Below are positions 1,879 to 44,359 of a DNA stretch of 58,764 nt, piece after piece. Both the position numbers and the translations under genes were made by a program. Numbering within the stretch: position 1 is the stretch's first letter; every line of letters starts with the position of its first letter. The notes under the pieces are model-generated. The model was not told where the DNA came from and did not search any database. It saw only the letters and a program-made list of their open reading frames with translations. The stretch comes from Candidatus Bilamarchaeaceae archaeon (lineage in GTDB: Archaea > Micrarchaeota > Micrarchaeia > Anstonellales > Bilamarchaeaceae): positions 15,934 to 74,697 of the forward strand of contig JAVZJR010000001.1 in the NCBI GenBank assembly GCA_038870635.1, in the 5' to 3' direction.

Positions 1879-1920
1879 ACCACAACCGATTAAACGTCGA
1901 TAAAAATAATGATAAACGAT

Positions 1921-1952
1921 ATATTTATAAATATTATCATGATATTATCATG
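1921..1952. promoter_or_regulatory. Palindromic TATA element plus tandem 11-bp repeat between divergent genes
   Basis: ATATTTATAAATAT (1921-1934) is a perfect palindrome containing TTTATAAA; ATATTATCATG occurs twice in tandem (1931-1941, 1942-1952). Confidence 0.55.
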
Positions 1953-2021
1953 ACAGTTGCGTGATCTTAGCGCAACGTTGTCATTGCAGTGGAGCGAAAT
2001 CCCATGTAGAGGTGATCATTT

Positions 2022-2465
2022 ATGGATGATAATAACAAAGATAAAATATATAAATCTAACGCACACGCAAGCAACAACAGTGGCATAAACTACGAAATAG
2101 AACGAGATATACAAGCAAACCTTGACAAGTTTCGAGACCCTATAATTTTAGGAGAACTTGTTTACAAGCTCCTAGAGGAACGAGAAAACACAAACAGAAT
2201 ATTAAAAAACTTACTTGCAAAAATTGAAGCCCTAGAACAAAAATTAGAAAGCAAAGAGATAAACGAAGAGGAACTACTTGTGCCAGAGATAGATGAAAAA
2301 ATAATAGAATTCGTAAAGCAAAGGCAAAGAGTAACGGCCGAGGATGTTAGAGTACAATTTGGCTATAAAGGTAAAAACGCTGCATCATCGAGGCTTAATC
2401 GATTGTGCGATATGGGTATATTAAAAAAGAAACAAGTCGGGAAGAAAGTTTTTTTCTTCCTTTGA
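2022..2465 (+). CDS. Coiled-coil + winged-helix DNA-binding protein
   Basis: Heptad-rich middle region, then IDEKIIEFVK...VTAEDV...GYKGKNAASSRLNRL...GILKKKQVGKKVFF (wHTH). Strong SD GAGGTGATC at 2009-2017. Confidence 0.75.
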   Translation: MDDNNKDKIYKSNAHASNNSGINYEIERDIQANLDKFRDPIILGELVYKLLEERENTNRILKNLLAKIEALEQKLESKEINEEELLVPEIDEKIIEFVKQRQRVTAEDVRVQFGYKGKNAASSRLNRLCDMGILKKKQVGKKVFFFL

Positions 2466-2480
2466 ATTTTTTGCTTATTA

Positions 2481-2657
2481 AGGCAAGGCAGAGGACGGCA
2501 AGCCAAAAACTCCCGCCTCTCAACCCCCCTATTTTTATTATTTGGCTGCCGGCCTCTCCACTATCCTCCCACCAGAAACCCCTCTGGGGTTTCTAATATT
2601 AATTTAGGCAAGGCGATAAGAGTCGCGCGTCCTCCCATAAACCCAAACGCGACTCTT
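2481..2657. ncRNA. Candidate structured RNA / cis element with three hairpins and C-rich loops
   Basis: Stems 2490-2507/2541-2557, 2574-2582/2586-2594 and 2618-2627/2648-2657; AGGCAAGGC repeated at 2481 and 2606; a T-rich tract follows on +. Confidence 0.45.
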
Positions 2658-2740
2658 TCTATCTTTTTTAGTTTTTTATTCCAAAGAAAGTAAAGAAATT
2701 AAGATAAAGAAAGAAATAGATAAAATTAAAAAATAAAAAA

Positions 2741-4012
2741 TTATTGAGTCTTTGGGGTAACGTTAAGAACTATACCAGCTGCCACTGTTTGACCCATATC
2801 TCTTATGGCAAATCTTCCAAGTGGTGGAAAGTCTTGGAACTTTTCAATAACTACTGGTTTAAGCGGTTGTACTTTTACAACTGCAACATCACCAGTCTTA
2901 ATAAAATCTGGTTTTACTTGTGCGGTCTGACCTGTTTTTGGGTCTTTCTTTTCTAGTATTTCAATAATCTTACCAGCAAATTGGGCGGTATGAACATGGA
3001 AAACAGGTGTATAACCAACTGCTATTGCGGTTGGATGATTAAGAACGACGATTTGTGCAGTAAAATCTGCTGCAACTGTTGGGGGATTGTTCGTTGGGCC
3101 TATAACATCTCCACGCTTTATATCTTTCTTATCGACATTTTTAAGATTAAAACCAATATTGTCACCAGGTACTGCTTGTGGAAGCTCTTTGTGATGCATT
3201 TCAATTTTCTTAACTTCACCCTTTACACCAGAAGGCATAACAATAACAGTGTCATTTGGCTTGAGGACACCTGTTTCTACTCTTCCTACTGGTACAGTAC
3301 CATGACCAGTAATAGTATAAACATCTTGGATTGGTAATCTCAACGGCTTATCAATTGGTTTTGGAGGAACCACAAATGTATCTATAACTTCCACTAAAGT
3401 AGGTCCATTATACCAAGGCATGTTGGATGATTTTTTAGTTATATTATCACCCATGTAAGCTGATGTTGGGACGAACTTGACTTTACTCACATCGTAACCA
3501 ATACCTTTCAACAACTTTTCAGCCTCTGCTTTTACTTTATCGTACTCTGCTTGGCTATAATTAACAGCATCCATCTTATTCAAACTAACTGCGATTTGTG
3601 GAACACCAAGAACCTTAGCTAAGAAGGCGTGTTCTTTTGTTTGTGGCTGAATACCATCTTTAACAGATACGATAAGAATTGCTGCATCTGCTTGACTTGT
3701 ACCAGTAATCATGTTCTTAACAAAGTCCCTGTGGCCAGGTGCGTCTATAATAGTGCAATAGTATTTTGGTGTTTCGAACTCTCTGTGGGCTACATCAATA
3801 GTAACACCACGTTCACGCTCTTCTTTTAAATCGTCCATAACATACGCAAATTCGAAAGTCGCCTTACCGAGCTTTGCTGCTTCTTCTTTTAGCCTCGCAA
3901 GTACTTGCTCGGATATCGCGCCAGTCTCATACAAAATCCTACCAACACTTGTTGACTTACCAGAGTCAACATGGCCGATAAAGACCAAATTCAAATGCTC
4001 TTTCTGTGCCAT
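2741..4012 (-). CDS. tuf: Translation elongation factor EF-1 alpha
   Basis: [17 protein letters not shown] and [10 protein letters not shown] motifs; ATG at 4012 (MAQKEH) with GAGGAGG SD upstream. Confidence 0.98.
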
Positions 4013-4338
4013 ATACAATACCTCCTCTCGAATATTTTTTACCTTACCAGAATAAGGCTTAAAATGAGTTTAAAAAAAAACTTTTATAAAGCTTTCCCTA
4101 AATAATTTATATAAGTGGTAAAAAATATATAAAAATGCAATTGAAATGAGAAAAAAGAGGTACGAATTTTTTGATTTCTTCCATTCTTTCTTTTCTAATC
4201 TTTTTATATAAAGGTATATAAGGCCCTTAAAAATAATATATTAAAACTCTGTTAAGTCCTAGAAACACTTAGTTGCCGCCAACACTATTCATCATAAACA
4301 TTAATAAATACTTTTATACACATTATTTCTGTGATTTT

Positions 4339-5049
4339 ATGGAGATGAAAACAAAAAAAATGGAAGGTAAAAAAGCAAAAGTTGAGAAAGATAATCAAAA
4401 GCCAAAAAACCTTGCCTTCGATACTTTGCTTGAAGAGGCCAGAAGAAACGAAATAAAAGCAAAAATGCAAAAGAATATTGAATTAATCGAAGCGGTTAAA
4501 AAACGTGATAAAAAAAAGATAAGCGAACTTATTATGGCAGGAGCTGATCCTACAAAAAGAGACATACTAGGCGGCTATCCTGACGAAGCCATAATAATAG
4601 CAAAAAAGACTCAAGATTATGAAATGCTTACACTCATAACTAACAAGATTATTGAATATTTTGAAACAAAAGGAAATGTGGAAAAAAAAGAAGAAAAAGA
4701 TAAACTCAATAAAGTACTCATTATCGCAAGCGATATGTTTTTACCGCTTGAGAAGATCAAAAGATTGGTAGAACTCGGCGCAAAACCAGATTCACAATAT
4801 AAAGACTTTGAAAATGGACAGAGCGCATTCATAAAATGTGCAATAAAAGGAAATATAGTTGCTGCAAATTATTTTAAGGATTATATAAAAAATATATCGC
4901 ATGAGGATGGAGATGGAAAAACTGCGATGATGCATGCGATGGCGCACAGACATGATGATATTAGATGGCTAATTTTTGAAGAAATGGAAAAACGCAGAAA
5001 ATCACCTCCAAGAGAAATAGAAGAAGAATTAATAATTCCAGATGATTAA
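4339..5049 (+). CDS. Ankyrin-repeat protein
   Basis: LIEAVKKRDKKKISELIMAGADP, LVELGAKP, GQSAFIKCAIKGN and DGDGKTAMMHA are ankyrin-like. Start moved to ATG 4339 (4345 also possible). Confidence 0.7.
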   Translation: MEMKTKKMEGKKAKVEKDNQKPKNLAFDTLLEEARRNEIKAKMQKNIELIEAVKKRDKKKISELIMAGADPTKRDILGGYPDEAIIIAKKTQDYEMLTLITNKIIEYFETKGNVEKKEEKDKLNKVLIIASDMFLPLEKIKRLVELGAKPDSQYKDFENGQSAFIKCAIKGNIVAANYFKDYIKNISHEDGDGKTAMMHAMAHRHDDIRWLIFEEMEKRRKSPPREIEEELIIPDD

Positions 5050-5079
5050 GTTTTTTTTAATACTTTACACAAAACATAA

Positions 5080-5146
5080 AAACCCAAGGAGAGGATGGTA
5101 CACCCGAAGGCTCCATCCACTCCTCCCACCAGCCTAAAAAGGCATC
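5080..5146 (-). ncRNA. Candidate small structured RNA with cUUCGg tetraloop hairpin
   Basis: Minus strand reads GCCU-UUUU-AGGC UGGUGGGA GGAG-U-GGAUGG-A-GCC-UUCG-GGU-GUA-CCAUCC-U-CUCC, then a U-run; TTTAAA at 5167-5172 lies about 22 nt upstream. Confidence 0.45.
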
Positions 5147-5275
5147 TGATAGTTATGTTAAAAAGATTTAAATTACTTGATTTTTTTCTCGTGATAAAAA
5201 ATACGCAAAAATTTATTTTAAAACACTAAAAAAATCTTACGAAAGAATTTTAAAACAAAAACGATAAACAAATTT

Positions 5276-6478
5276 ATGGACGACCAGAAAATTGAGAAAA
5301 TAATAAAATATGGAACAATAGTCGCTGTTTTGGGTCTGGCCACAATAGTAGTAGTTTTATTTTTACAAGTAAAACTTCCAGTAATTGGCAAACCGAGTAA
5401 TTGGCTCGTGAGCGGAGGGCTAACACTTACAGAAATAGAAGAAACAGAAGAGGAAAATATTTGCGATGATATGTGTTATTACAAAAAAGCTCTTCAAAAC
5501 GCAACTTATTGTGATTACATAAAAAACGAAAGCGTAAAAGAGGATTGTTATGAGAAATGGGTAGATGAAAGCTTAGATTATTGTCTTAAGGTAAAGGGAA
5601 ACATTAGGGAAGAATGCATATACTACCACGCGAAAAAAAACGACAACATAGATATATGTAGAAATGCAATAAATAGAAGCGCTTGCATGCTGTATGTTGA
5701 TGATTGCTATAGCTACGAGGATAACACAGAAAAAGGCAGATGTTTCGCTTTTAAAAGAAAAAATTACACTTATTGTTTAGATGACTTATGTTATTTTGAT
5801 TTCGCTCTTTCAATAAATGAAAAAGAAATATGTAATATGATAAGTTCGCCTGCAAGAAAAACAGCATGCGTGTCGATAATAGAAAAGAATGATAGATGTA
5901 CCGAATTAAATGTTCCTGCAGAAAAAGACTTGTGCTGGCAACTATATGCTATTGAATCGAAAGATAGTGCAGTGTGCTTCAGAATAAGCAAAGTGAGTAG
6001 GTATGCTCTTAATTGCTTTGCATATTATGCGGCTAAAATGAAAGATTTAAGCTTTTGCGATGCAGGCGGATTTGTTTTAGATGATTTATGGAAATGCTAT
6101 CGCATATACTCCCTTGAGAGTGGGGATCTCACTGGCTGTGATTTGATATACAATAAATCATTAGGGTACGCAACGACGAATATATATGCGTGTTATGCAG
6201 AGTATGCAAAAAAATATGGAAACCCTGCAGCATGTAATGGAATTCGTGACCTCTCTCAAATGAGAACTTGTTATGAAGGGTCGATATTAGGAAAAACAAA
6301 CATAGATTATACAAAGTGCGCAGATATCCAGCTATCTATATGGAAAAACAAATGTTATACAGAGTATGCAAAATACAACAATGACCCCACTAAATGCGAT
6401 TACATAACAACAAATAAAGAAGAAAGAGAAGCTTGTTATATCGCTTGGCGTGTTTATAATAATGTAACGTCAAGTTAG
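5276..6478 (+). CDS. Membrane-anchored Cys-rich repeat surface protein
   Basis: N-terminal TM helix, then many C-x2-I-x5-7-C-Y/W-x3-A repeats. Confidence 0.75.
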   Translation: MDDQKIEKIIKYGTIVAVLGLATIVVVLFLQVKLPVIGKPSNWLVSGGLTLTEIEETEEENICDDMCYYKKALQNATYCDYIKNESVKEDCYEKWVDESLDYCLKVKGNIREECIYYHAKKNDNIDICRNAINRSACMLYVDDCYSYEDNTEKGRCFAFKRKNYTYCLDDLCYFDFALSINEKEICNMISSPARKTACVSIIEKNDRCTELNVPAEKDLCWQLYAIESKDSAVCFRISKVSRYALNCFAYYAAKMKDLSFCDAGGFVLDDLWKCYRIYSLESGDLTGCDLIYNKSLGYATTNIYACYAEYAKKYGNPAACNGIRDLSQMRTCYEGSILGKTNIDYTKCADIQLSIWKNKCYTEYAKYNNDPTKCDYITTNKEEREACYIAWRVYNNVTSS

Positions 6479-19685: not shown

Positions 19686-19705
19686 AAAATCATTTTAGGC
19701 TGGAA

Positions 19706-20332
19706 CTATTTAAATTGTTCTTTCCCCCACCGCACTATCAGGGCGTGATATTCATTAAACAAACGATAGTTTTTTGGGAGGTTTTTTTCAAAAAATAGTT
19801 GACAATCGTTATAACTTTTAAAATTACCAAGACCATAGTAAATGCAAAACCTAAGTGTGTATGCATCCACAACGAAAATAGGTTTCTTAAAAGCATAAAG
19901 AAGAATGGAATCCGCAGTTTCAGGTCCGATTCCTTTTACACTCAGAAGAGCTTCGCGCGATTCTCTTAAACTGCTGCATTTCCTTATTTTTTTATAGATA
20001 GGCAAAAGCCGTTTTATTCTTTCTGCTTTTTGATTGTAATAACCCGAGGAACGTATAAGCAAAGCCAATTTTTTTATAGGCATACCTAACAGAGATGAAT
20101 AGTCTAAGACATTATTTTCATAAAGTGAAAGAAGAGCTTTTTCAGCATTTTTCCAATTTGTCCCTTGAGCAAGAATGGCACCAATGGTAATCTGAAATCT
20201 ATCTCTTTCATTTTTTGGAGTGTTGTAATCATTAGGGTGGTAATGGATTTTACCCCTTTTTATTGTTGGCCACCACCCCTGTGGACCGTATATACCAAGC
20301 AATCTTTTGTACATCGCTAAAAGAGATACCAT
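19706..20332 (-). CDS. HhH-GPD endonuclease III-related DNA glycosylase (no Fe-S motif)
   Basis: GPQGWWP, GAILAQGTNW, LLSVKGIGPETADSILLY, VVDAY and EYHALIV motifs. Confidence 0.88.
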   Translation of the reverse strand: MVSLLAMYKRLLGIYGPQGWWPTIKRGKIHYHPNDYNTPKNERDRFQITIGAILAQGTNWKNAEKALLSLYENNVLDYSSLLGMPIKKLALLIRSSGYYNQKAERIKRLLPIYKKIRKCSSLRESREALLSVKGIGPETADSILLYAFKKPIFVVDAYTLRFCIYYGLGNFKSYNDCQLFFEKNLPKNYRLFNEYHALIVRWGKEQFK

Positions 20333-24612: not shown

Positions 24613-24633
24613 AAAAACACTTATTAAAGCTAG

Positions 24634-24708
24634 TAGCGGGGGTTGGATTTGAACCAACGAGCTCCGGGTTATGAGCCCGGCGGGCACTCCAGGCTACCCC
24701 ACCCCGCT
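24634..24708 (-). tRNA. tRNA-Met(CAT), initiator, intronless, CCA not encoded
   Basis: AGCGGGG...CCCCGCT-A acceptor stem (A1:U72); anticodon arm CCGGG-CTCATAA-CCCGG with three G-C pairs; T arm GTTGG-TTCAAAT-CCAAC. Confidence 0.97.
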
Positions 24709-43036: not shown

Positions 43037-44359
43037 ATGGCAAAATATTTTGGGACGAATGGTGCAAGAGGAAAAATAGATGAATTCCCTCCACACATAG
43101 CAAAAAAACTTGCATACGCAACAGGCGAATACCTTAAAAATGGAAGGATTCTACTTGCACGCGATGGAAGAAATAGCGGCCAAATTTATTTTAATGCGAT
43201 TTCAGAAGGTCTGCTTGAAGCAGGATGCACAGTAATCGATCTTGGAATGGTGACTTCTCCGACTGCAGAATTTATGATAAAAAAGCTGAATGCAGACGGG
43301 CTTGTGATAATAACCGCTTCTCACAATCCTCCAGAGTATAATGGTATGAAAGTAGTGGACGGCAATGGCGTGGCTGTCTCCAAAGAAAGAGCAGAAGAAA
43401 TAGAGATAATAGCGGAAAAACCAGCAACTAAAAAAAATGGAGTTATGAAAAAATACGAAAGGGCAACCGAAGACCACATAGAGGAGATTATAAAAAAAAT
43501 CGATGTTGAAAAAATAAAAAAGATAAAACCACGCTTAGTGCTTGACTGTGGAAATGGAATGTCATCACTCATAACACCTCAACTATTCAAAAGATTAGGA
43601 TGCGAAGTAATACCTATAAACTCCCATGTTGATGGTAATTTTCCAGGCAGGCCTTCAGAACCAACAGAGGCAAACGTAAGCGATATGTTGTCATTAGCCA
43701 AAGAGGTTGGGGCTGACGCTGGGATTGCATGGGATGGTGATGCAGATAGAGTAGCATTTGCAGATGAAAACGGCCATTATGTAATAGGAGACAAGGTTTT
43801 TGCCCTTTCAGCTATCCTTAAGTTGAGAAAGGAGAGAGGAGATATAGTAACAACAGTAGCAACAACAAAAGCAATGGAGGATATAGCAGAAAATTTTGGC
43901 GTTAAAGTAAGATACACTAAAATAGGTGCGCCATATCTATGCGAAGAGATGTTGAAGGGAAACGCGGCGATTGCAGGGGAAGAGGTTGGCGGAGTGATTT
44001 GGCCAGAGATATCGCTAGCAAAAGAAGGCATATATACAGCTGCGAAGATAGTAGAAGCGATATGTGAAAAAAAACTTTCAGAGTGGATTAAAGATTTGCC
44101 TCAATATGTAAACATAAAAGAAAAAATAAAGGCAGATGATAAAAAGAAAAAAGAAATAATTAGAAAAATGTTAGAATACGCAAAAACAAATAATCTCAAT
44201 TACATCGACATAGATGGAGTTAGAATAAATTATGATTGTGGGTGGGTTATAGTTAGAGCATCAGGTACAGAAGATTACGTTAGAATATTCGCAGAGGCAA
44301 AGAGCACCAAAGAAGCAAAAGAATTAATAAACAAGCATAGATTAATAATCGGTGAGTAA
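43037..44359 (+). CDS. Phosphohexomutase (GlmM/PMM-PGM family)
   Basis: FGTNGARG, TASHNP, DGDADR, GEEVGG and RASGTE motifs. Confidence 0.93.
   Translation: MAKYFGTNGARGKIDEFPPHIAKKLAYATGEYLKNGRILLARDGRNSGQIYFNAISEGLLEAGCTVIDLGMVTSPTAEFMIKKLNADGLVIITASHNPPEYNGMKVVDGNGVAVSKERAEEIEIIAEKPATKKNGVMKKYERATEDHIEEIIKKIDVEKIKKIKPRLVLDCGNGMSSLITPQLFKRLGCEVIPINSHVDGNFPGRPSEPTEANVSDMLSLAKEVGADAGIAWDGDADRVAFADENGHYVIGDKVFALSAILKLRKERGDIVTTVATTKAMEDIAENFGVKVRYTKIGAPYLCEEMLKGNAAIAGEEVGGVIWPEISLAKEGIYTAAKIVEAICEKKLSEWIKDLPQYVNIKEKIKADDKKKKEIIRKMLEYAKTNNLNYIDIDGVRINYDCGWVIVRASGTEDYVRIFAEAKSTKEAKELINKHRLIIGE

Follow-up and report, generated by a model that had tools for sequence, protein, structure and literature searches.

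Two covarying and mutually complementary RNA families in Bilamarchaeaceae and related archaea: a candidate base-pairing regulatory pair, one member linked to a small winged-helix gene

Small regulatory RNAs (sRNAs) of bacteria and the sponge RNAs that pair with them make contact through C-rich and G-rich seeds, with several C-rich sites per RNA. In archaea, trans-acting sRNAs of Sulfolobus and Pyrobaculum reportedly pair with the 3' regions of mRNAs; for DPANN archaea such as the Micrarchaeota, whose genomes are about 1 Mb in size, we know of almost nothing on RNA-based regulation. The bacterial pairs are exemplified by RoxS with RosA in Bacillus subtilis and by RsaI with the C-rich Rsa sRNAs in Staphylococcus aureus (PMC8216469; bioRxiv 10.1101/278127). 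Here we describe two intergenic islands in a 58,764-nucleotide stretch of the genome of a Candidatus Bilamarchaeaceae archaeon (the window; positions 15934-74697 of contig C1), island 1 at 2469-2677 on the plus strand and island 2 at about 5146-5071 on the minus strand, which an earlier note on this DNA had taken for copies of one element. The comparisons made here establish two RNA families, each covarying and each with its own strand-specific wobble pattern, opposite to that of the other, and a complementarity between them that is conserved and co-varies in unpaired regions. We consider it rather probable that the islands are the genes of two different conserved, structured and complementary RNAs, which would form a trans-acting, base-pairing regulatory pair; that both RNAs are expressed, that they pair in the cell and that this pairing regulates is what we infer from the comparisons.

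The genome (G000) comprises 859,065 bases in eight contigs, has 35% GC and is an 89.6%-complete assembly. The islands were compared among six members of the same genus. Covariance models of the C-rich RNA of island 1 (R1) and of the G-rich RNA of island 2 (R2) were applied to 99 genomes of the taxonomic family (35 of them of high quality), and R2 also to 151 genomes sampled across the order. Clades are labelled g for genus and f for family, the present genome belonging to genus g1. Pairing was analysed in the 39 genomes with both loci in hand, and the word-length and permutation statistics refer to the first 20 of these.

The repeat from which the earlier note had started is real. The 12-mer TCCTCCCACCAG stands exactly at 2564-2575 and at 5121-5132 of the plus strand, can be extended to TCCAC(TA)TCCTCCCACCAG as had been given, and has exactly two copies in the 859,065 bases, both strands taken together; the 9-mer CCTCCCACC likewise has exactly two on both strands, and TCCTCCCA has 20. 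When one mismatch was allowed, the window still held only two matches, for a chance expectation of 0.09, and two or more were reached in none of 100 dinucleotide shuffles. Every flanking hairpin folds as had been described and beats its shuffled controls: island 1 (long stem 2490-2507/2541-2557 and short hairpin 2574-2594) reaches -39.4 kcal/mol on the plus strand (z -4.0, 0/200 shuffles as good), and island 2 (stem 5087-5124 and short hairpin 5132-5143) reaches -22.7 kcal/mol on the same strand (z -3.5). A third copy of TCCTCCCA, at 2630-2637, lies as stated in the loop of a hairpin (2620-2655), of weaker fold (z -2.1). The idea of same-strand copies of a single multi-copy family is not supported: R1 scores island 2 at 5.1 bits (E 8.8), and the wobble asymmetry places the islands on opposite strands. 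That they are structured RNA remains, in that both are conserved and covary, neither matches an Rfam family and the motif is an unpaired functional part; they are simply not one family. The stems, said to be unrelated, do differ, but not wholly, both starting AAGG(C)AGAGGA(Y)GG, and the common orientation holds in this genome but is contingent, given that 13 genomes of other genera, with both elements on one contig about 22-39 kb apart, have them in opposite model orientations. Both models find relatives, so that the islands are not absent from related genomes. Since the islands are encoded on opposite strands, the shared DNA word reads as complementarity between two RNAs and not as a common motif.

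The features of island 1 and its partner gene, all on the plus strand, are as follows.

2022-2465, plus: small winged helix-turn-helix (wHTH) gene of 147 amino acids, an open reading frame (ORF) and the conserved upstream partner of the C-rich RNA.
2469-2575, plus: C-rich RNA unit 1, starting from 5' GCTTATTAAGGCAAGG and continuing with a long hairpin that covaries and a C-rich tail at the 3' side (R1 109.4 bits, E 3.5e-32).
2490-2557, plus: long stem, arms 2490-2507 and 2541-2557, around an apical loop (fold and covariation).
2508-2529, plus: apical loop with the family-invariant CTCCCGCCTCTC at 2510-2521 (invariant in 6/6 genus members).
2557-2575, plus: unpaired C-rich 3' tail TCCACTATCCTCCCACCAG, containing the 12-mer at 2564-2575; proposed pairing site for the G-rich RNA (fold and complementarity).
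2574-2594, plus: short hairpin after the tail, in relatives with a conserved YGACCAGGG loop and then a T-run (fold).
2594-2677, plus: degenerate second tandem unit, with AGGCAAGGCGA at 2606-2616, stem 2620-2627/2648-2655, loop TCCTCCCATAAACCCAAA at 2630-2647 and T-runs at 2663-2677 (R1).

Homologues of the wHTH gene were found at 77 archaeal loci, relatives of the protein coming from metagenome-assembled genomes labelled Candidatus Micrarchaeota, Micrarchaeia or Bilamarchaeaceae. The entries listed as matching window positions 1900-5300 are DNA contigs of hot-spring metagenomes, with no RNA run among them. R1 gave 70 matches in 47 of these 77 loci, and all 70 lie directly downstream of the gene and on its strand. 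Within the family the C-rich RNA was found in 54/99 genomes, including 20/35 of high quality, often as two or three tandem matches 120-220 nucleotides (nt) apart, with the consensus order ..AUU GAUGGCAAGGC, covarying stem, loop ACCUCCCGCCUCUC.., returning stem strand, ACUUGUUAUCCUCCCAC, small hairpin (often with the YGACCAGGG loop) and U-run. Among the 70 units the loop word CTCCCGCCTCTC is exact in 55 and CTCCC[AG]CCTC is present in 66; the tail TCCTCCC, the conserved and unpaired part of the RNA that bears the 12-mer, is present in 43; GACCAGGG follows at most 100 nt downstream in 30, and a run of five or more T in 30. Closer to home, the region of island 1 is found in 5/6 same-genus genomes at E <= 3.2e-6, and in the alignment of the six genus members the loop CTCCCGCCTCTCAACCC is invariant while 9/15 stem pairs show compensatory changes. 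With 69 distinct sequences 93.3% of cells pair, 14/15 pairs change on both sides, and the covariation score was reached by 0/500 shuffles. The degenerate second unit is the second-best R1 match in the window, a weak one (10.2 bits, E 0.23), with a homologous hairpin in two genomes (G001 and G003), and the third TCCTCCCA copy is best described as the loop of this unit and thus as part of the island 1 family. We place the C-rich RNA on the plus strand because G.U pairs far outnumber A.C mismatches there (107 vs 13), because its outer stem GAUGGCAAG/CUUGUUAUC, which in some relatives encloses extra inserted hairpins, requires two G.U pairs, and because units end in T-runs.

Several further observations touch this RNA and its partner gene. 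YGACCAGGG is a strongly conserved loop word of the small hairpin after the C-rich units (30/70; for example loci L025, L041 and L062), and since some tandem units adjoin without T-runs, that hairpin looks more like a signal for processing than like a simple terminator. A perfect hairpin, GGAAGAAAG TTTTTTT CTTCC, is formed by the final codons of the wHTH gene (2436-2458), and hairpins of the form GGAAGRRG...CYYCTTCC recur before later tandem units (L040, L042), apparently outside the wHTH frame; the hairpin at 2436-2458 may belong to the RNA unit. Upstream, the gene is preceded by two direct ATTATCATGA repeats (about 1935-1955) and then by the inverted repeat GTTGCGTGATCTTAGCGCAAC (1957-1978), in whose place relatives carry a TTGCG(T/C)GAT..ATCGCAA palindrome, probably the operator of the wHTH protein itself. 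That protein has weak matches only, in Pfam to SoFic-like_C (E 8e-6) and Penicillinase_R (E 0.0096), and of wHTH type among NCBIfam and PDB sequences. Contig C5 holds a fourth such GC-rich element between genes (minus strand, about 19700-19800), in which the family words GGCAAGGCGACCAG and GTTATCCTCCCAT follow the hairpin GGCCAGCGCATTTCTGCGCTGGC; it resembles a minimal C-rich unit away from a wHTH gene, and could be a further, 8-nt site for the G-rich RNA.

Island 2 comprises the following features.

5071-5146, minus: G-rich RNA of family R2, an approximate extent with predicted ends (R2 112.9 bits; covariation).
5132-5143, minus: 5' short hairpin GCCT AAAA AGGC, variable in sequence (fold; 4/4 pairs change on both sides).
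5116-5132, minus: G-rich linker with the RNA sequence CUGGUGGGAGGAGUGGA and complementarity to the C-rich tail (sequence and predicted heterodimer).
5087-5124, minus: main hairpin with loop 5099-5112 and, on the minus strand, a cUUCGg cap (fold and covariation).
5071-5085, minus: GGGTTTTTATGTTTT (minus-strand sense), the likely transcription stop of the G-rich RNA (sequence).
5166-5173, no strand assigned: ATTTAAAT box, for which most relatives have TTTATATA; taken as a TATA box that would serve the minus-strand RNA (alignments).

The G-rich RNA appears to be a single-copy gene with a wide distribution: R2 has exactly one match in each of 65/99 family genomes, including 28/35 of high quality, and across the order it matches 80/151 genomes, other families among them (f6, 32/42; f12, 2/2). 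Its alignment has 94.9% of cells paired and 11/16 pairs changed on both sides, with a score that 0/500 shuffles reached. In three relatives (G001, G003 and G004) island 2 is kept together with its loop, the short hairpin covaries, and the ATTTAAAT box stands 32-37 nt downstream. That box keeps a constant distance of 20-22 nt from the short hairpin (counted on three loci), whereas from the start of the R2 model to the ATG of the plus-strand neighbour the distance varies from 117 to 328 nt, which is why we assign the box to the minus-strand RNA. In relatives the hairpin of the G-rich RNA is followed by a pyrimidine-rich stretch or by short U-runs; in the present genome GGGTTTTTATGTTTT recurs at C2:43079-43093 and 43181-43195, 102 nt apart, and could be either a stop signal in general use or one more small repeat.

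The strand of island 2 is what separates our reading from one in which both islands, transcribed from the same strand, present a C-rich single-stranded docking motif to a common partner, whether a protein or a third, G-rich RNA, within one multi-copy system. Read in the plus sense, island 2 does resemble island 1 in its layout and in the words CCCGCCTC and CCTCCCAC, T-runs follow it on the plus strand too, and the third and fourth TCCTCCCA sites stand in similar GC-rich intergenic hairpin contexts. The wobble count speaks for the other strand: in the plus sense the R2 alignment holds 20 A.C mismatches, which are G.U pairs on the minus strand, vs 6 G.U pairs, and its main hairpin holds 16 vs 2, the reverse of island 1. 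On this excess of A.C we place the RNA of island 2 on the minus strand, where its structure also pairs better (98.0% vs 94.9% of 452 cells), though the alignment had been fitted to a plus-sense model. Moreover, it is only the minus-strand reading that yields stable UUCG and CUUG loops, C(UUCG)G capping 11/30 family members, as against one GNRA loop on the plus strand; no other G-rich partner was found in the searches, and R1 does not recognize island 2. We therefore regard the same-strand docking model as quite unlikely.

The minus strand could alternatively carry a mini-gene or leader, with GGGAGGA serving as Shine-Dalgarno (SD) sequence for a short peptide, MEPSGVPS..., given that GGAGGA lies 5 nt before a minus-strand ATG and that the first eight codons look conserved in four genus members. 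Those codons coincide with the covarying hairpin, and the C-terminal parts, of 13-20 amino acids, are unrelated to one another; the ORF is not credible, since in 3/30 members the loop has 3 or 5 nt instead of 4, which breaks the frame, and we give this explanation next to no weight. Two structured RNAs on opposite strands thus remain the reading that we carry forward.

The two RNAs are complementary where neither is expected to be paired within itself. The 12-mer of the earlier note corresponds, in this genome, to a 12-nt duplex of UCCUCCCACCAG in the C-rich RNA with CUGGUGGGAGGA in the G-rich RNA, which extends to 17 nt with a 2-nt bulge. In 37/39 genomes the G-rich linker can form 9-15 uninterrupted Watson-Crick pairs with a C-rich loop or tail lying no more than about 430 nt downstream of the wHTH gene, so that the candidate pairing sites are loops, tails or linkers of two RNAs that are encoded separately. 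The duplexes are specific to clades and have changed on both sides in g1, g19, g12, g18, g9, g3, f6 and f12, as listed here (C-rich strand, then G-rich strand, where both are given).

G006 (g1): UCCUCCCACUU with AAGUGGGAGGA.
g19 and g33: CCUCCCACUCU with AGAGUGGGAGG.
g19, alternative site: UCCCGCCUC(UC) with (GG)GAGGCGGGA.
G076 (g19): UCCCGCCUCUCA with UGAGAGGCGGGA, 12 nt.
g12, 5/5 genomes: CUCACCUCCCAC with GUGGGAGGUGAG.
g18: duplex of 13 nt.
g9: UUACCUCCCACCUCU with AGAGGUGGGAGGUAA, 15 nt.
g3, 4/4 genomes: (C)CCUCACUUC with GAAGUGAGG(G).
f6, 3/3 genomes: duplex of 10-11 nt.
f12: duplexes of 10 and 14 nt (14 nt in G035).

The longest common word of the two RNAs averaged 10.05 nt within genomes, vs 9.28 nt for mismatched pairs of genomes and 6.85 nt for a wrong-sense control; under permutation of the labels, among relatives that are not independent, the observed mean was reached once in 20,000, and with shuffled partners 9 nt was reached in 3.9% of trials. 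The heterodimer predicted for the two RNAs of the window contains the 12-mer duplex and gains -13.7 kcal/mol, vs -3.2 for the wrong-sense control, and with RNAduplex the proposed sense was better than that control in 19/20 genomes. In this genome there is further complementarity between the 3' arm of the G-rich RNA and the 5' arm of the C-rich stem. Elsewhere in the genome no complement of the C-rich loop or tail was found beyond short, apparently coding matches: a G.U-tolerant target search returned two 12-nt matches to the loop core, GAGAGGTGGGAG, at C1:85844 and C6:17571, of which one was read as coding and the other looks coding, and blastn-short of the islands against the genome returned low-complexity noise only.

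A word shared by two loci, one of them genetically linked to a gene for a DNA-binding-type protein, might instead be a DNA operator of that wHTH protein, drifting with its specificity, so that identical words at the two loci would co-vary and the RNA structures would be incidental. Considering where the word lies, we think this improbable. On the wHTH side, all but one of the 37 genomes with a duplex have it in an unpaired part of the hairpin, either in the apical loop or in the tail that adjoins the stem (the exception being G004, in which the stem of the short hairpin reaches into the C-rich tail), and these hairpins covary strongly; counted from the wHTH stop codon, it is found between +33 and +428; an asymmetric match of 9-15 nt is not what a dimeric wHTH site typically looks like; and the separate conserved palindrome upstream of the gene is the better candidate for an operator.

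A further alternative comes from the ribosome. The 3' end of the 16S rRNA of this genome is ...GATCACCTCC. The C-rich loop reads CUCACCUCCCAC in g12, g18 and g24 and UUCACCUCCCAC in g31 and g47, both of which contain UCACCUCC, the last 8 nt of the 16S end, and the partner RNA reads GGAGGUGA, so that the pair looks like an SD:anti-SD duplex; the loops of g12, g18 and f6 share 8 nt, and the loop ACCUCC of the C-rich family equals the last 6 nt of 16S. The C-rich RNA may accordingly imitate the 16S 3' end and the G-rich RNA a ribosome-binding site, ribosomes or mRNA sites being the primary targets and the mutual pairing a side effect or a decoy. The earlier note had in view a comparison with 16S and SD usage. 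In the present genome the tail shares only CCTCC with the 16S end, and GGGAGG is rare before genes: among 725 crude gene starts a 4-mer SD core precedes 275 (about 38%), the leading non-AT hexamer is AGGTGA, making AGGUGA the usual SD, and GGGAGG precedes only 3. Nor was extended complementarity seen between the C-rich RNA and the start region of its own wHTH gene at 47 loci, the longest matches being 5-8 nt, which also speaks against this RNA folding back on the wHTH ribosome-binding site. In g1 and g3 the two sides of the duplex have departed from 16S (to UCCUCCCACCAG and CCUCACUUC, respectively, on the C-rich strand) and are still mutually complementary, which we read as selection on the RNA-RNA duplex itself. 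Ribosome mimicry as the primary function is in our view unlikely, and we keep it as a rival or as an ancestral state.

Several points weigh against the pairing of two opposite-strand RNAs that we favour. The strands, the ends and the co-transcription of the C-rich RNA with its gene are all deduced from the DNA, and the minus-strand call for island 2 depends on 20 vs 6 cells, counted over 30 sequences that are related to one another. Being almost a palindrome, the TATA-like box might instead belong to the divergent gene of about 400 amino acids. The permutation figure overstates the case, the relatives not being independent, and owing to the conserved core motif pairs drawn from different genomes also share 7-14 nt. 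Whole-molecule RNAduplex gave long, messy duplexes with a modest mean z of -2.1, modest because the C-rich and G-rich composition alone favours pairing. Two of the 39 genomes are exceptions, G103 lacking a G-rich/C-rich duplex and G011 having one of 8 bp with one G.U pair and an unrelated 9-mer. The first hairpin of g3 keeps a CCUCCCAC loop that the G-rich RNA of that genus does not match. Lastly, the GGAGGA part of the G-rich site sits in the lower stem of its own hairpin.

Taking these points together with the evidence for a complementary pair, we suggest the following mechanism. The C-rich RNA (plus strand, 2469-2677) would be transcribed with the wHTH gene or right after it, as one to three tandem units, each of which would present the invariant C-rich apical loop of a long hairpin and a single-stranded C-rich 3' tail before ending in a small hairpin and a U-run. 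The G-rich RNA (minus strand, about 5146-5071), with one copy per genome, would be expressed from its own TATA box and consist of a 5' hairpin, the G-rich linker and a UUCG-capped hairpin, and its linker would base-pair with the C-rich RNA in trans, at the tail or the loop, here through CUGGUGGGAGGA and UCCUCCCACCAG. One RNA may then titrate the other, the multi-site and often tandem C-rich RNA titrating the G-rich RNA; alternatively, by way of the 3' region of the wHTH transcript, the G-rich RNA may determine how stable that transcript is or how it is processed. A more far-reaching version, which we think rather unlikely, is that the single-copy G-rich RNA and the multi-copy, wHTH-linked C-rich RNA make up an order-wide module with an SD:anti-SD-like duplex, a dedicated switch acting on translation or on the wHTH regulator, for instance as a stable two-RNA particle with the wHTH protein, and that a C-rich unit, copied in inverted orientation, gave rise to the G-rich RNA.

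Two genes flank the G-rich RNA gene in relatives.

2741-4018, minus: EF-1alpha gene (Pfam; cluster in 23/30 loci), beside the G-rich RNA gene in most relatives.
5276-6478, plus: conserved gene of about 400 amino acids, without a Pfam match, divergent from the G-rich RNA gene (in 29/30 loci).

In at least 12/30 relatives EF-1alpha is separated from the G-rich RNA gene by about 100-130 nt; here an ankyrin-repeat gene (4273-5049; Pfam Ank_2, E 8.5e-10) lies between them. That island 2 is a leader of EF-1alpha is unlikely, both for this reason and because a second promoter-like TTTAAAAATA intervenes in relatives. Before the EF-1alpha start codon many relatives (L133, L136, L137, L142, L143, L150 and L153-L157) carry a block AAACCTTTAAAAATATCTCG...ACCTTTTTCTAAAAGGTTGG, that is, a promoter-like box and a conserved leader hairpin.

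Known classes of RNA were considered in turn. At gathering thresholds Rfam 15 reports a single tRNA in the whole window, at about 24633-24708, where ARAGORN places it too; permissive scans of 2440-2740 and 5040-5280 on both strands gave best scores of 19.8 and 19.6 bits vs thresholds of 88 and 44. In this genome TCCTCCC-A-CCA resembles the acceptor strand and ACCA end of a tRNA, but neither ARAGORN nor the Rfam tRNA model detects anything at the islands, and conservation does not extend to the CCA; since relatives read CACTT, CACTC or CACAT, we take the resemblance to be accidental. With its intron search ARAGORN finds 33 tRNAs in the genome, of which many have odd introns; Asp, His, Trp, Val and Ile are without a tRNA in this set, which points either to unconventional genes or to gaps in the incomplete assembly. 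Signal recognition particle RNA, RNase P RNA and 5S rRNA in disguise were rejected, all three scoring above threshold elsewhere (C5:43888-44146, C3:35761-35997 and C1:312056-312170), and the 16S rRNA was also located elsewhere in the genome. A box C/D sRNA, of about 50-60 nt, has a terminal RUGAUGA (C box) and CUGA (D box), a kink-turn (K-turn) and guides of 10-12 nt; here there are partial look-alikes only (UGAUGG inside the outer stem, YGACC in the hairpin loop), spacing and length do not fit, and no Rfam C/D model matches. In a box H/ACA sRNA a hairpin with a pseudouridylation pocket and a K-turn or K-loop (kink-loop) carries an ACA box 3' of its lower stem, whereas the stems of the islands are continuous, with internal loops of 1-2 nt only, no pocket and no ACA after them.

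Finally, we consider what the pair would add to described systems. In a limited full-text search of the literature on noncoding RNA of Micrarchaeota and DPANN archaea and on archaeal sRNA pairs we found no description of these RNAs; trans base-pairing RNAs are known as a kind, and it is the RNA families, the host lineage and the genetic architecture that, to judge from these comparisons, are new. Two RNA families outside Rfam are kept across an order, one as a single copy per genome and the other locked to a small gene of DNA-binding type, and their sites change in step. If the proposal is right, they would join the small number of RNA-RNA interactions in archaea for which comparative evidence is the sole support, with a concrete candidate pair of about 75 and 110 nt. 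The case also illustrates how two genes on opposite strands, whose RNAs pair, can leave what looks like a repeated motif on a single strand of the DNA.

The trans-activating CRISPR RNA (tracrRNA) offers one analogy: a lone small RNA, encoded in trans, has complementarity to every unit of a tandem array, the precursor CRISPR RNA (pre-crRNA), much as a single G-rich RNA here faces tandem C-rich units; unlike that system, the present one has no repeat-spacer organization, no cas genes were seen nearby, and its units are long hairpins. An SD:anti-SD duplex shares the core GGAGG/CCUCC with ours, and the final 8 nt of the 16S of this genome recur in the C-rich loop of several genera; our duplex differs in extending into sequence that is not 16S (CAC/GUG and beyond) and in having drifted from 16S in g1 and g3. 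As with the trans-acting sRNAs of other archaea, the site to which a small RNA is complementary follows a coding region, but the 'target' is itself a conserved, structured and covarying RNA of one to three units, and the duplex co-varies across the order. The closest functional analogues are the bacterial sRNA/sponge pairs, which likewise consist of separately encoded RNAs with complementary, unpaired C-rich and G-rich stretches. The present RNAs differ from them in showing no homology of sequence or structure and no Rfam match, in their archaeal (DPANN) host, and in an architecture in which the C-rich RNA is fixed behind a wHTH gene, often in tandem, and the G-rich RNA is kept in single copy across the order.

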